Source of the DNA: Terriglobia bacterium
GTDB taxonomy: Bacteria > Acidobacteriota > Terriglobia > 20CM-2-55-15
Assembly (NCBI GenBank): GCA_965198225.1
Contig: CBDAOY010000008.1
Location: 896,001-960,000, forward strand
Direction: 5' to 3'
DNA length: 64,000 nucleotides
Made by a program: the position numbers and the translations under genes. Under the pieces are notes generated by a model. The model made no database searches and was not told the DNA's origin. It saw only the letters and a program-made list of their open reading frames with translations. This document shows positions 3,556-9,570 of the stretch, one piece after another; the first letter of the stretch is position 1; the number at the start of each line of letters is the position of its first letter.

Positions 3556-4419
3556 ATGAGAGCCATCTGGAAGGGTAACATCAGCTTTGCGCTGGTGACG
3601 ATCCCCATTTCGATCTTCAGTGCCACACGTTCGAGCGACGTTTCGTTCAAGTACCTGCACAAGAAGGATCTCAGCAAGGTCTCCTACAAACGATTCTGTG
3701 AGGCGGAGGACAAGGAAGTCGCCTGGGAGGAGATCACGCGGGGATACGAGTACGAGAAGGGTCGCTTCGTCGAGATTAGTGACGAAGAGCTGAAGCAGGT
3801 CAACGTTGAACTCACACGAACGATCCAGATCATCGAGTTCGTCGATGAAAAAGAGATCGATCCCCTGTATTTCGACAAGCCGTATTATCTGGAGCCCCAG
3901 AAGGGGGGGGAACGGGCGTACGCTCTAATGCGGGACGCACTCGCCAGGGCGGGGAAGATCGGTGTGGCCCGCGTGGTCCTCAAGTCAAAGGAGCACCTGG
4001 CCGCCGTCAAGCCCGTCGGCAAGATGATCACGATGCAGACGATGCGTTTCGCGCACGAGATCGTCGACACGTCTGAATTGAACCTGCCGGACGTCAAAAA
4101 TGTGTCCAAGAAAGAGATGTCTCTGGCGAATACTCTGATCGACACGATGTGCGACACCTTCGACCCGGAGAAATACAAGGACGAATACCGGGGCCAGTTG
4201 CTGGACATCATTCAGAAGAAGGTCGACGGCGTCGCGCCGGCAGTCGCGGTGACGACGCGCCGGACCCCCGGGAAAGTGGTCGATCTGATGGAAGTGTTGA
4301 AGCAGAGCCTGGAGGAAAAGAAGAAAGCTCCACGACGCTCGGCGAAAGAGAAAACTGTCGCGGCGCGTGCCCGGACCGGCCGCACAAAGACCAAAGCGAA
4401 AGCCAAGTCGAAGAAGTGA
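3556..4419 (+). CDS. ku: Non-homologous end-joining protein Ku
   Basis: MRAIWKGNISFALVTIPI, RGYEYEKG, IDPLYFDKPYYL, basic C-terminal tail. Confidence 0.95.
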   Translation: MRAIWKGNISFALVTIPISIFSATRSSDVSFKYLHKKDLSKVSYKRFCEAEDKEVAWEEITRGYEYEKGRFVEISDEELKQVNVELTRTIQIIEFVDEKEIDPLYFDKPYYLEPQKGGERAYALMRDALARAGKIGVARVVLKSKEHLAAVKPVGKMITMQTMRFAHEIVDTSELNLPDVKNVSKKEMSLANTLIDTMCDTFDPEKYKDEYRGQLLDIIQKKVDGVAPAVAVTTRRTPGKVVDLMEVLKQSLEEKKKAPRRSAKEKTVAARARTGRTKTKAKAKSKK

Positions 4420-5362: not shown

Positions 5363-5803
5363 ATGGCAAACGAACCACCACCCAAGGCCGAACCCCCTGC
5401 ACCGGTAGAACCCCCGACGCCTCGAAAGCCGATGAATCTGGCGCCCACGCTGGCGATCTGCGCCTCGGGGTGGCTGTTGCCGGGGATCGGACACATCGTC
5501 CTGCGTCGCTGGGCCCGGGGCACGCTCTTCATGCTGGCCGTGATGGTGATGTTCGCTCTTGGCGTCGCGATGCAGGGGAAACTCTACGACCCCACCCCGG
5601 AACAACCCCTCCACATCTTCGCTTTCATCGCGAACCTGGGGGTCGGCATGCCTTACATCGTCGCTCAACGCCTCGGCTACGGAGCGGGCTTGATTTCTGC
5701 TCCGAGCTACGATTATGGAAGCACCTACCTTTGGGTGTCGGGCCTGCTCAACTACCTCATCGTGCTCGACGTGTTCGACGTGGCCCGGGGGCGGAAGCCA
5801 TGA
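5363..5803 (+). CDS. Conserved membrane protein (DUF6677-like)
   Basis: WLLPGIGH motif, TM segments, YLWVSGLLNYLIVLD. Confidence 0.75.
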   Translation: MANEPPPKAEPPAPVEPPTPRKPMNLAPTLAICASGWLLPGIGHIVLRRWARGTLFMLAVMVMFALGVAMQGKLYDPTPEQPLHIFAFIANLGVGMPYIVAQRLGYGAGLISAPSYDYGSTYLWVSGLLNYLIVLDVFDVARGRKP

Positions 5804-5976
5804 ACCTCTCGCACTTCGAGGCGCTGTTCATCTTTGCGTTGATCGTCTCGGTTGTCTTCGCTCTGATCAACAAGACGACTCCGATCGAGCAGCTCAAATA
5901 CGGGGCGCTGGTATTCCTTTCCTTCGTCGGTGTCGGTTTCTTCGTCGGCTGGTTTATGTTTCCCTTTCCATTCTGA
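5800..5976 (+). CDS. Small two-TM membrane protein
   Basis: MNLSHFEALFIFALIVSVVF...GWFMFPFPF; ATGA overlap with the upstream gene. Confidence 0.7.
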   Translation: MNLSHFEALFIFALIVSVVFALINKTTPIEQLKYGALVFLSFVGVGFFVGWFMFPFPF

Positions 5977-6216
5977 GCGGTGGTTCGATGAGCAAGTGTT
6001 TACTGTCATACACCGCCCTGTACGGGTTAGATGAATCGGTGGGTCCTGCAGAAGTCCGCGCCGCGTCAATTCCGATCAACGCTAGGGATTTATTCGGGAC
6101 TTGAGAATCATTTTCGAGGCTGTTCAGGTAAAGAAACTCGCGTATCGCGGTAGGAATGCCAGTCTCCCGGCACCACCCGCGCAGATCCGGACGTGCGGAA
6201 TTCCCGCATCCGGCTC

Positions 6217-6388
6217 CTACCTCGGATGGTTGGCGGCAAAGCGGCGATCCGGATAAGGATGTAAGACACGGGGTTCAGGAATCCAGCGGTCTGAGATCCG
6301 GAGCATCCGAGTCCACGTCACGTGCCCGCGCTGGCTACGACGATACAAGTTCAATCGCTCCGCACAGCGCTCAGTCCCTGAGACACGA
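6217..6388 (-). pseudogene. Collapsed intron RT/maturase: first codons joined to the last ~45 codons
   Basis: Start-like VSQGLSAVR followed out of frame by the maturase tail RRSQRGHVTWTRMLRISDRWIPEPRVLHPYPDRRFAANHPR*. Confidence 0.8.
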
Positions 6389-6507
6389 ATATCTCCTGCT
6401 CTGTGTCGGGCTCGTGTGAGACCCGAGCGATGTTCTCCTTGGTCCGCGTCCTTCCCTCCCCAATCTCCGCCGAGTACGGGTCCTCTTTGTTCGGCTGGTT
6501 CACAGGT

Positions 6508-7484
6508 GTAGAGTCGAAAGTGGTCGGGCCGCAATCGGCCCTTCCACCGTCCGCTCAATCAAACGGCTCGTGCGGTTTTCCCGCAAGCCGCTTTCCTCAG
6601 TTGCTCCTCGTTCGGAATTCGCTGTGTGACCGGGGGCGGCAGGTGGCGGCTTCGTTCGTACCGCGTTTGGGTCTTTCGCTAAGGGAACTATCCAAGTTCA
6701 CGATATCTCCGCGTTTCCCATCGCTCGCACATTCACGACTGAGTACGGGGACTTCCCCCTCCAACGGGCCTTTTGGACCCGCCAGCGCCGCTGCTCGAAG
6801 CAACGATCCGAGACCTTATGTTTGCCGTCTCGTTCCTGAGTACTATTCCCCGATCCGATTCCTGAGCACCGCGTCGGCCGGAATTTCGCTCTCGCTTATA
6901 TCCGCACCTACCGCGCCAGGGCTCTAGGTCGATGTTTGTCTTCTCGGTTGCCCGCCCTTTCGTCTGCACCTACCGCGCAGGGCTCTAGGTCGATGTTTGT
7001 CTTCTCGGTTGCCCGCCCTTTCGTCTGCGGGTGCCACATCATCTCGACCTTACCTTCCGCCCGGACGATACCAGGCCTCCCTGGGTCACTCGCGTCTCTT
7101 CTCCACCGTGTCGCCCGCACACACCTTGGTGCGATGGGGTGGAACCAAATGCGCCTTCGCCCCCATAGTGCGGGCTCGACCATTCCCCATCTTTGGCCGA
7201 CCGGTTCATCCTCGGGATCGCTCCCTTCGATTACGACCCGGTGGTTCTCCTCATGCCCTTCAGACCCCACCTCGCGGTGGGCGCCCTGCCCTCCAAAGTT
7301 TCCGTAGGTGGCTCCAGCTCTGCCTTGTCCGTTTCCGGCTTTCGCCTTCGTGCCCGTTTAGGCATCTGCCATACCTGCCTACACTCCGGCCAGTGAGGCA
7401 TTACCCCCACTTGTTGGATATCGACCCGTGGCCTCGGGCCGAGCGGGACTTTAACCCGCCGGAAACGCGTGCTGCCAGGCACGC
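6508..7484 (-). mobile_element. ORF-less group II intron (inner), nested in the outer intron
   Basis: 5' end GCGTGCCTGGCAGCACGCG; fully paired DV AAGCGGCTTGCGGGAAAACCGCACGAGCCGTTT; DVI ending CGACTCTAC; removing it restores CATAGT|ACC of the outer intron. Confidence 0.85.
6904..7026. repeat. Tandem duplication, 62 + 61 bp, inside the inner intron
   Basis: GCACCTACCGCG(C)CAGGGCTCTAGGTCGATGTTTGTCTTCTCGGTTGCCCGCCCTTTCGTCT occurs twice and differs by one C. Confidence 0.95.
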
Positions 7485-7888
7485 ACTATGACGCGGTCTG
7501 ATCCCTCCAGAGCGTTCATGCCCGCATTGTGGCCTTGGCCTTTTCGGGCCGGCCTCGGTTTCGACTTCACCGAGGCACTTCGGAGGTCTCCCGGTTCTCG
7601 TGTATGTTGTTTCTCAGCGTGCGCGGGGTCTTAGACTACGCAGGACCGACAAGCCACTTGCGTTTAACGCAGCCCATCGTGTTGCCTTCCGCGACCGTAA
7701 AAGCGTCGGCATCCTGATCTCGTACCCTTTTCGAAGCTCAATAGCCCAGCCCACTGATACCTCTGTCTACGCTTCAAGCGCCACCTCACGATGACAGCCC
7801 GCAAGACTCGAGGCCAGGATGGATTCGCTATCCCCTTTCCTGTACGACTCTTTCATTCGCGACAACATACCGGTTTATCCTGGCGTAC

Positions 7889-7930
7889 TACGGCACCGGC
7901 ACCGTTCCTTCAGTTCTTCAAACCAGCCGT
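7889..7930 (-). pseudogene. C-terminal relic of an acidobacterial-type Ser/Thr kinase or PD40 protein
   Basis: TGG TTT GAA GAA CTG AAG GAA CG(G) GTG CCG GTG CCG TA = WFEELKER(V)PVP* with one G missing; recognised from memory. Confidence 0.5.
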
Positions 7931-8095
7931 GCCCTAGTTTCGCAAGACTCGGCCGAGCGCTTCAATCTCAGCGAGGCCCCGCATCGCTGCCAGCGTTACC
8001 TTCGCCCTTGAATGCAGCAGAAATATTCCGTCCCTTTGCCATTCGCGTAAGGTCTGCTCATCTGTGCGGAGACCATTTGAGAATGCCGTCTGAAT

Positions 8096-8914
8096 CTACC
8101 TCCGACTTTTGGAAATCGCTGTAGAAGTCGGCGAACGCAACTCCCGAACGATCCCGAACAGACTCAGGATCCTCAAGACGTAGTACGTTATGTCAATCTC
8201 CCACCATCGCAAACCGTGCCGGGCACTATACATAAACCGGTGGTGATTGTTATGCCAGCCGTCTCCCAGTGTGATCAGCGCGACGAAGCGATTGTTCCGA
8301 CTTTGGTCTCCCGTTTCAAACGGCCTGGATCCCCAGACATGCGCGAGGGAATTAATTGAAAACGTGGAGTGCCACAGCACAACAGTCGAAACAACAAATC
8401 CCCAGAGGAAAACGGGATAGCCTCCCGCCGCAAACACGGCAGCACCAAACAAGAGAGCAGGGACACTGTGGTATCTGTTCAAGAGCCTGAGTTCCGGAAA
8501 CTTTTCGAAATCCTGCATGATGCGGCTGTCATATCCACTGGACTCACCGGAAAGAAGCCATCCGATATGCGACCACCAAAGGCTACCGCGTACTGGAGAA
8601 TGGATATCTTCCTCGGAATCCGAGTAGCGATGGTGCACGCGATGATGTGCCGCCCACCACAACACGCCCCTTTGCCCGCCGGTCTGGGCGAGGAAGGCTA
8701 AAACAAACTGAGAAAGGCGATTGAGCCTGAAGGCACGATGGCTGAAGTACCGATGATAACCGGCCGTGATTGCGAACATTCGAATGCCATAGCTGATGGC
8801 GAACCAGCCAAGGTAAGACCACTTGAACGGCGTCCACAACAAAAGCAGGCACGCGGCATGCATCGGGACAAAGGAAACAATTGCATCGAAATGAAATCGT
8901 CTAACTCGCGTCAT
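8096..8914 (-). CDS. Membrane acyl-CoA/acyl-lipid delta-9-type fatty acid desaturase
   Basis: Three His boxes HRYFSH, HRVHH and HNNHH; start placed at MTRVRRF, as the longer upstream ORF is unlikely to be coding. Confidence 0.92.
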   Translation of the reverse strand: MTRVRRFHFDAIVSFVPMHAACLLLLWTPFKWSYLGWFAISYGIRMFAITAGYHRYFSHRAFRLNRLSQFVLAFLAQTGGQRGVLWWAAHHRVHHRYSDSEEDIHSPVRGSLWWSHIGWLLSGESSGYDSRIMQDFEKFPELRLLNRYHSVPALLFGAAVFAAGGYPVFLWGFVVSTVVLWHSTFSINSLAHVWGSRPFETGDQSRNNRFVALITLGDGWHNNHHRFMYSARHGLRWWEIDITYYVLRILSLFGIVRELRSPTSTAISKSRR

Positions 8915-9405
8915 ATTTAGGCCCGATTGGGAACCGCGTACCGACACCGATTGAGCTTGAACCGTAAGAAACTGCCCATTCTCCTTGATTTCGCGGTCAC
9001 AACTCACAAAATTGGACCTTAACAGAGTCGGGAATCTCCACTCCATTGATGCAAGCCTCCACAAAAGCCATTTGCACCACATTTGCCACTTCAACGACCC
9101 TACGAGTGGCGCGATACGCCGAGGGACTCTCGGCGTGGACATCCCCAATAACGGGAATGTGGTGTTGAATGCCATGTCGGGTAGGGTTGCAAGTCTCGAC
9201 TACGTTGATGTCGGAAGTGAAAGGCCCTTTGTGCTCCGTTTGGTGCGTCACTAACTGAACCGCGAAAATCTGGCTAAATATAACTACAGGTGGGATTTAT
9301 AAGCAAGAAAAGTCTCAACTCCCGTTCAGACGGCGTAATTCGCCCAATTCTCAAATGACAACAAGGGGATTTATCGGGAGCTGACCCTCCAAAACGAGGG
9401 AGCCC

Positions 9406-9570
9406 TTCGCGGCAGGGACACCGGTCGCCCGGCCCCCGCACAGATTCCGTACGAGCGGAACTACTTCATACGGCTCCTGCCTCGGATGGATTGCGGCACA
9501 CACTACGTACCGCACACCGCAGAATTCCCGTGACACGTCTACCTCCCGCAGTTGTGTGCGTGAAGTCTGC
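9406..9570 (-). mobile_element. Degenerate group II intron 3' remnant (DIV relic, DV, DVI)
   Basis: GAGCCGTATGAAGTAGTTCCGCTCGTACGGAATC...GTGTCCCTGCCGCGAA; RT start-like VSREFCGVR joined to tail AAIHPR; branch A replaced by G. Confidence 0.75.

Follow-up and report, generated by a model that had tools for sequence, protein, structure and literature searches.

The 64,000-nucleotide stretch analyzed here, from the genome of a Terriglobia bacterium (contig CBDAOY010000008.1, positions 896,001 to 960,000 of the forward strand; the whole stretch is called the window below), carries on its minus strand two nested sets of group II intron ends, one intron running from 7484 to 6508 inside another that runs from 7888 to 6144. 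Neither encodes a usable reverse transcriptase (RT), and the question that the locus raises is how one nonautonomous intron came to lie inside another and what could have moved it there. The original prediction saw an intron without an open reading frame (ORF) within another ORF-less intron, a retroelement parasitizing a retroelement, which could splice inside-out with RTs encoded elsewhere. The structural part of this reading is right, and the interpretation was largely right as well, if too narrow: the inner intron belongs to a multicopy family, called family I here, and the twintron is one case of a family homing into group II introns. Our results indicate that the locus is very probably a true twintron made by retrohoming, in which a family I copy inserted into an older resident intron.

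Results

Family I and its hosts in the source genome

A BLAST search of the source genome (6.4 Mb in nine contigs, given C numbers here) with the inner intron, 7484 to 6508, returned 53 segments that resolve into 17 loci and two fragments of less than 60 nt. The termini of the family are identical at 20 5' junctions and 21 3' junctions, and a canonical copy without the ORF measures about 906 nt. At three loci, about 1,260 additional nt lie between positions 850 and 869 of the family. Two of these RT-bearing copies (C5:501714-503866 and C6:343788-345941) have an intact ORF of 405 amino acids just upstream of domain V (DV), with RVT_1 (E = 2e-33) and GIIM (E = 4e-20) domains and no endonuclease domain, and in the third the ORF is truncated and frameshifted. 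The ribozyme 5' parts of the two intact siblings are 98 to 99% identical to the inner intron. In an alignment of 12 ORF-less and two RT-bearing copies, a single ORF-deletion junction is common to 11 of the 12 ORF-less copies, and the twelfth has a further deletion across that junction, which argues that one deletion derivative multiplied. Since this one derivative stands behind 10 distinct 5' flanks in the source genome, an RT supplied in trans would have been required, and the spread of the ORF-less form on such an RT is well supported by these comparisons of copies. The idea of a maturase acting in trans, and the search for RT-bearing relatives that it suggested, have thus been borne out for the inner intron (three loci, two of them intact) and not for the outer one. 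Among solved structures, the RT is closest to the group II intron reverse transcriptase/maturase of 7uim (E = 3e-65) and to the GsI-IIC RT (E = 8e-63); the family I ribozyme, at about 900 nt and with a 34-nt DV, is not IIC-like.

Fifteen of the 17 loci, including the one in the window, lie inside another group II intron. Among the 16 other loci, Rfam places a host D1D4 match just upstream and on the same strand in 14; the two exceptions are C5:3834 and C8:158737. The hosts are of four Rfam types (D1D4-6, -2, -3, and -4), and most hosted copies have a second RT gene and a DV downstream. Family I also targets itself: the self-target is occupied by another family I copy at C5:62160-64012, C6:840163-841975, and C8:158737-160383. 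At C6:838.8-843.6 kb (locus L044) the nest has four levels, with an intron X holding an intron of the O family, which holds a family I copy, which holds a second one. O is inserted 8 nt past the DV of X, and the nest is confirmed by the rest of X, which resumes after the 3' end of O. Introns of the O family start with UUGCG and are inserted after GAGCG; GAGCG was considered as the O start and rejected, as uninterrupted copies of X show it to be exon. Three more places, C5:606-610 kb, C5:759-762 kb, and C5:810-816 kb, show O inside X in this way.

Family I occurs, too, as a full copy plus a 3' part and as a 5' part plus a full copy, and some loci have chimeric host flanks; such composite forms and mixed flanks are what homologous recombination between copies would give. 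Two loci, C4:150750-152235 and C5:889958-890863, combine a D1D4-2-type 5' flank with an O-family 3' flank, a mixture that either misassembly or ectopic recombination of copies residing in different hosts would produce. At C6:1003531-1005821 (L045), an occupied intron of the P family, which like O is of D1D4-6 type, has about 580 nt that code for only the C-terminal part of an intron-encoded protein (IEP); this part looks thumb/maturase-like by eye and would be a 5'-truncated IEP.

Target motif and position in the host ribozyme

A table of 27 distinct insertion sites, of which the source genome supplies 10 and loci of other genomes 17, gives the target consensus GRRG(U/G)CRGA-N6-CRUAGU^A, in which the caret marks the insertion point. 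All 27 sites have T at -4 and A or G at -5, and T at -1, G at -2, and A at -3 are each found in 26. Farther upstream, C is found at -6 in 20 sites, A at -13, G at -14, and G at -18 in 22 each, and C at -16 in 25, while on the other side +1 is A at 21 of 21 3' junctions of the source genome. The site in the window pairs at six of six positions with exon-binding site 1 (EBS1) of family I, the partner of intron-binding site 1 (IBS1). Across 15 aligned lineage members, taken from the source genome and 14 loci of other genomes, the EBS1 core ACUAU does not vary, and 14 of them have G as the sixth base. Among 14 family copies of the source genome this last base is G or U, and the variant tracks target base -6, which is C in four of five EBS1-G copies and A or G in eight of nine EBS1-U copies.

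Two kinds of unoccupied intron touch on this motif. Three P-family introns without an insert (Table 1), near-identical, ORF-less, and about 806 nt long, have C and not G at -2, which could be chance or resistance. In a related genome, G017, an uninterrupted D1D4-6-type intron (L058, contig C19) contains a perfect family I target, …CAUAGU^AG…, and family I DNA was not found in that genome.

The insertion site of family I is in the ribozyme of the host and not in its ORF. In the window it lies about 140 nt (142 nt) after the D1D4-6 match and 289 nt before the outer DV, and at locus L083 of another genome the insert follows the D1D4-6 match at a distance of 144 nt. In hosts that have an RT gene, the site is upstream of the RT start by about 190 nt in O and Q and by about 370 nt in R. 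RNAalifold applied to nine D1D4-6-type introns gave a 13-bp helix, called helix H here. The window copy makes 12 of its 13 pairs, seven of the nine sequences make 10 or more, and several pairs show compensatory changes; an alignment with MAFFT and the P family alone misplaced the insertion site. The insertion point falls 13 alignment columns past the 3' strand of helix H, and downstream of it come a short hairpin and then an AGC-containing linker. From the general architecture of group II introns, we take the site to be the end of domain I (DI), followed by DII and J2/3.

The outer intron

The outer intron is 1,745 nt long, or 768 nt without the insert. At gathering score, Rfam finds just two matches in the window, both in this intron: RF02005 (group-II-D1D4-6; cut-off, 49 bits), matched over the full model (positions 1 to 225 of 225) at 7851 to 7626 on the minus strand with 166.3 bits (E = 3.4e-48), and, at the 3' end, RF00029 (Intron_gpII, covering DV and DVI; cut-off, 40 bits), with the catalytic triad in DV and a bulged A in DVI. 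These matches and the termini of family I place the two nested sets of ends on the minus strand exactly where they had been predicted, and the AGC triads and bulged A described for both introns are present, in the outer one at 40.2 bits and in the inner one at 36.4 bits and by eye. The G of the outer AGC triad stands opposite an A, as it does in the P family, so that this feature belongs to the lineage and is no defect peculiar to the outer intron. The outer 3' end is identical to that of the P family. The outer 5' end, GUACG, departs from the consensus GUGYG; the same variant is present in same-genus relics (L053 and L054), which argues that it was inherited. P-family introns start with GUGCG 36 nt ahead of their D1D4-6 match, and the corresponding distance in the outer intron is 37 nt. 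A UACGGU loop in DI would be EBS1 of the outer intron: in the P family the equivalent loop is UAACGG and the exon CCGUUA, a covariation with the outer pair UACGGU/GCCGUA. The relics, the spacing in the P family, and this loop all support the placement of the outer 5' end at 7888. The minimum-free-energy fold of the complete outer intron was not interpretable.

That neither intron encodes a usable RT agrees with the protein searches, in which none of seven minus-strand ORFs in 6144 to 7888 matched any Pfam family at an E value of 0.01 or less and none of the 35 genome hits obtained with the family I RT as a tblastn query fell in that interval. A suspected RT remnant in the outer 3' part (…PEPRVLHPYP…) found no support, as three-frame tblastn with the outer 3' segment matched only the related host half at C5:501464-501713 and Pfam gave no match.

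The outer intron is single-copy in the source genome. Its relatives there are a 140-nt fragment of 82% identity and the more distant D1D4-6-type families O and P, and its 3' half is 82 to 88% identical to the 3' flank, at C5:501464-501713, of an RT-bearing family I copy whose 5' flank is of another type. The outer intron is probably an immobile leftover. A second stretch of the window, 9407 to 9498 on the minus strand, is 77% identical to the outer DV/DVI; it stays below the Rfam gathering score and may be the relic 3' end of an intron of the same type.

The 38 nt that precede position 7888 have 27 to 32 BLAST matches in the genome, ending at the insertion point. In nine of 13 inspected copies this stretch holds the last codons of genes, the products of which end in …NWFEELKERVPVP before the stop codon, whereas in the window just the tail is left, shortened by a 1-nt deletion and without coding sequence ahead of it. 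The outer intron is thus lodged in a remnant of the site to which it homes, and no gene depends on its splicing. In the same-genus genomes G002 and G003, the same gene-tail motif is followed by only the first ~274 nt of this intron type. More broadly, the genes of a large paralogous family share a conserved 3' end, a repeat of 36 to 40 nt (…INIVLNWFEELKERVPVP before the stop codon), with many copies in the source genome, at C6:283-342 kb, at C9:758-797 kb, and elsewhere, and in the relatives G003, G005, G012, and G015.

The twintron is intergenic, 208 nt downstream of an ORF on the same strand (8096 to 9175), which from its translation we take to be fatty-acid-desaturase-like; the DV/DVI-like stretch at 9407 to 9498 lies upstream of this ORF. 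In genomes G012, G001, and G004, similarity to the window does not run past the stop codon of the desaturase-like ORF, and no intron-type match adjoins it. On the plus strand of the window, the ORF at 3556 to 4419, starting MRAIWKGNISFALV…, presumably encodes a Ku-type end-binding protein.

The inner intron

The DV and DVI of the inner intron were found in a permissive Rfam scan of positions 5500 to 8500 (3 kb), which also gave weak matches to D1D4-3 at 7281 to 7174 and to D1D4-4 at 7461 to 7367; the inner intron falls short of the cut-offs of the D1D4 models and of RF00029. The bulged A of its DVI, located by eye, is 7 nt from the 3' end. Its identity as a group II intron follows from the repeat family with identical ends and from the RT-bearing siblings and not from an Rfam score.

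The boundaries of the inserted unit come from comparison of interrupted and uninterrupted sites. A 5' end 2 nt farther upstream (GUGCG, with GT standing before 19 of 20 copies) was considered and rejected, since the uninterrupted self-site already holds GU, and in three self-twintrons GU remains with the upstream half of the interrupted copy. This fixes the inserted unit as exactly GCGUG…CUCUAC, 7484 to 6508, and the empty sites in the P family and at L058 equal the ligated exons in length only with this boundary. Relatives in other genomes begin with GUGUG or GUGCG at the position aligned to the inner 5' end.

The inner copy retains its 5' end, EBS1, DV, and DVI, and it is 97 to 99% identical to family copies of an evidently recent burst. 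Relative to the family consensus, it has 13 substitutions plus 1-nt and 2-nt indels common to one to five other copies. Its private changes are a 62-nt tandem duplication, within a stretch missing altogether from six of 15 aligned lineage members, a 1-nt insertion at 6866, and a 7-nt insertion at 6629 to 6635. Since only indels in a length-variable region are private to it, the inner intron is probably still competent for splicing, to judge from its sequence.

Table 1. Features of the twintron and of related introns (window positions unless a contig is named)
Feature	Position	Strand	Details
Outer group II intron, ORF-less	6144..7888	-	5' GUACG, 3' ...CUACCGCGAU; Rfam D1D4-6 and DV/DVI matches
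Inner group II intron, ORF-less, family I copy	6508..7484	-	977 nt; 5' GCGUG, 3' CUCUAC
5' exon relic	7889..7926	-	38 nt; 3' end of the paralogous gene family ending ...NWFEELKERVPVP and stop; outer homing site
Domain I core, outer intron	7626..7851	-	RF02005; top-scoring of 23 D1D4-6 matches in genome
Proposed EBS1 loop UACGGU, outer intron	7694..7699	-	DI hairpin; complements 5' exon end GCCGUA (7894-7889)
Helix H, 5' strand	7576..7588	-	Covarying DI helix of outer intron; 3' strand ~7500-7514
Family I homing site, 5' side, in outer intron	7485..7508	-	IBS1 CAUAGU at 7490-7485; 3' side begins with A at 6507
EBS1 ACUAUG, inner intron	7164..7169	-	Complementary to IBS1
62-nt tandem duplication, private	6917..6978	-	Absent from 13 other aligned copies
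Unoccupied family I self-target	6841..6842	-	…AAUAGU^ACUC… inside inner intron
RT-ORF deletion junction	6611..6619	-	~1,260 nt here in RT-bearing siblings
DV + DVI, inner intron	6508..6595	-	RF00029, 36.4 bits, E = 8e-5; AGC triad with G-U pair
Segment between insertion site and DV, outer intron	6219..6507	-	Presumed DII-DIV; no recognizable ORF remnant
DV + DVI, outer intron	6144..6218	-	RF00029, 40.2 bits
Unoccupied P-family introns	C6:296063-296868, C8:78632-79436, C5:569679-570483		

Relatives in other genomes

Family I DNA was not found in the three same-genus genomes searched (94 to 96% complete) and was found in two of 29 relatives overall, at 77 to 91% identity. A search of genome contigs with the RT reached farther and gave 44 loci. 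Judged by RT, the closest relative with a name is a metagenome-assembled genome (MAG) labeled Terriglobia (94% identical), followed at about 80% by two MAGs, one labeled Desulfobacterales and the other "uncultured delta proteobacterium." Between 53 and 73% are isolate assemblies of one Desulforhopalus and two Sedimenticola, along with MAGs labeled as Alpha- and Gammaproteobacteria, Nitrospinota, NC10, Ignavibacteriaceae, and Neomarinimicrobiota. A host-intron signal is present at 21 of the 44 RT loci. A D1D4 match lies upstream of the intron 5' end in 15 of 23 loci scanned (one of the 15 below the cut-off), and a second RT gene, 26 to 42% identical, follows on the same strand in 16 of 44; at L070 a second DV follows 145 nt downstream. 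Where junctions in other genomes could be mapped, they show the same target motif inside host introns. The remaining loci, without a host signal, are mostly on short or cut contigs or belong to a group of RTs of 40 to 48% identity, found mostly in MAGs labeled Verrucomicrobia or its subgroups, in which there is no host-intron signal.

Discussion

The anatomy of the locus, the target motif, and the company that family I keeps elsewhere fit a model in which two insertions followed one another. The older resident would have been an ORF-less D1D4-6-type intron in a relic copy of its own target, into which a nonautonomous family I copy later inserted. Family I would recognize a conserved element near the 3' end of DI of other group II introns, at least by pairing of EBS1 (ACUAU followed by G or U) with IBS1 and probably with help from the RT or from another pairing that involves the upstream block. 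Speculatively, the invader may read the host element with the strand, GUCUGA at about nt 220, that normally pairs with this element in its own fold. Since the inner copy has no RT ORF, the RT/maturase of its siblings, the two intact copies on C6 and C5, must have mobilized it if the model holds. The anatomy, the family with its common deletion junction, the target motif, and the host-intron surroundings are observed directly; we infer retrohoming as the mechanism, an RT acting in trans, and removal of the inner intron before the outer one folds. The insert separates parts of the outer ribozyme and stands 13 alignment columns after a covarying DI helix, and inside-out splicing, with the inner intron leaving first, would therefore be a reasonable expectation.

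Several observations weigh against this account in whole or in part. An empty allele of this particular outer intron was not found, so that the insertion event is read by analogy with other sites. The inner DV/DVI, at 36.4 bits, is below the RF00029 cut-off of 40, and the inner 5' end, GCGUG, deviates from GUGYG. The placement of the insert at the end of DI comes from our own alignment and from general group II architecture and not from a solved structure. The remaining points bear as well on whether the nest is still alive. It may be a dead fossil, real as a nest and with both introns inert, persisting only because it is intergenic, and we hold this to be quite possible, if somewhat short of probable. 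In the source genome the outer intron has a single copy, an exon reduced to a 38-nt relic, and no cognate RT or RT-bearing relative that we could find; G002 and G003 keep only ~274-nt 5' relics of its type; and the inner copy carries three private indels. Against inertness, the outer DI has the top score among the 23 D1D4-6 matches in the genome, the outer EBS1/IBS1 pairing and helix H are intact, and the inner copy, as described above, has kept its 5' end, EBS1, DV, and DVI and its close identity to copies of the recent burst.

Transcript data do not settle this point, as the contig data count neither for nor against splicing. Window DNA is present in runs of nine studies, including sponge metatranscriptomes, and contigs of three RNA runs (sponge metatranscriptomes) and one DNA run were aligned to the twintron region. 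Neither a 7485/6507 nor a 7889/6143 joint was reported in the three sponge metatranscriptome contig sets, which would suit a fossil; assembled contigs lose rare forms, and absence of splicing cannot be read from them. Those RNA contigs that cover the inner intron are flanked by O-family sequence and skip the 62-nt duplication, and so come from other family I copies. A contig of run X9 ends exactly at 7888, which is no evidence for an excised intron and is uninformative, since this point borders a repeat with about 30 copies. In the RNA libraries, which may contain DNA, parts of the outer intron have a coverage of 2 to 4.

Two further explanations concern the origin of the arrangement. A multicopy element such as family I could have been misthreaded by the assembler into an unrelated unique intron: in DNA run X1 the unique parts have a depth of about 11 to 12, compared with about 380 to 430 (~35x) for the family I contigs listed, and a short-read contig spanning the whole element was not found. 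An artifact would hardly place both junctions exactly at the family I termini, with flanks that make up a perfect target (six of six IBS1 pairs and the upstream motif), and the outer halves match each other, a D1D4-6-type DI going with a P-type DV/DVI end. The inner copy, moreover, has private indels unseen in the 13 other aligned copies, and there are fourteen analogous nests on other contigs and more in other genomes, which leaves misassembly most improbable. The twintron could instead have been mobilized whole, or co-opted as a regulatory element in the 3' untranslated region of the desaturase-like gene, and its place downstream of that gene on the same strand would suit the latter. Mohr et al. 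(2010; PMC2882425) raise retromobility of composite twintrons as a possibility. The outer-plus-inner unit is single-copy in the genome, and in G012, G001, and G004 similarity ends by the stop codon of the desaturase-like gene with no adjoining intron-type match; we regard a composite acting as one unit as very improbable.

Taken with the relatives in other genomes, the retrohoming account invites a wider reading, which we put forward tentatively and with some doubt. Family I may belong to an endonuclease-less lineage, present in MAGs of at least six labeled phyla, that homes to a conserved ribozyme element, the 3' end of DI, of several intron types including its own, and its members would be obligate parasites of group II introns. 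On that reading, the ORF-less derivatives would form a further tier, parasitizing both the host intron sequence and the RT of the lineage.

Nests of group II introns are known from Methanosarcina acetivorans, where, according to the review by Zimmerly and Semper (PMC4424553), repeated site-specific homing into other introns has built nests up to five deep, balanced by recombination. The source genome resembles this system in its repeated site-specific homing of group II introns into group II introns, in its nests (four deep here), in having ORF-less beside RT-bearing members and no coding exons dependent on splicing, and in the loss or rearrangement of copies by homologous recombination. It differs in that the family I site lies in the ribozyme, whereas the title of Dai and Zimmerly (2003) points to related intron ORFs in M. 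acetivorans, and in that the hosts span four Rfam D1D4 types in a bacterial genome. In Thermosynechococcus elongatus, according to Mohr et al. (PMC2882425), ORF-less deletion derivatives of the TeI3/TeI4 introns multiply on the RTs of related introns in trans, one family occupies a conserved site of another mobile intron, and the inner copies are near-identical and the outer ones diverged, all of which is like family I. There, however, the insert separates the first ATG of the host ORF, in DIV, from the second and leaves the ribozyme uninterrupted, whereas family I splits the ribozyme; the outer intron of the window is itself ORF-less, unlike those of T. elongatus, and family I also targets itself. 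The twintron of Trichodesmium erythraeum (Pfreundt and Hess, 2015; PMC4649490) likewise has its inner intron within DI of the host, and sequential splicing has been shown for it experimentally. It is a single case in a protein-coding gene, with an IEP ORF in both introns, whereas the introns of the window are both ORF-less and intergenic and represent one of many insertions by a specialized family. A literature search turned up no account of a lineage that homes into the DI end of other introns; subscription journals were thinly covered by it, and such an account may be in print. What appears to set family I apart from the known nests is its target in a ribozyme element, its range of four host D1D4 types and itself, and the recurrence of this habit across RT relatives of several labeled phyla.

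The window twintron itself has no consequence for any gene, and its interest lies in the family. Bacterial ORF-less introns are described as rare, with only several bacterial twintrons on record, in the Zimmerly and Semper review (PMC4424553), and the source genome has both in quantity, with about 20 family I copies or fragments and nests up to four deep. It offers a natural system for how introns proliferate using other introns as safe landing sites, for the spread of nonautonomous derivatives on a shared RT, and for the limits set by recombination and by changes in target sites, such as the C at -2 in the three unoccupied P copies. If the preference is true of the lineage as a whole, it would be a distinct targeting strategy, in which a target is guaranteed wherever group II introns exist and in which insertion would inactivate the host ribozyme until the invader splices out, with implications for how intron proliferation and a shared splicing apparatus are modeled.

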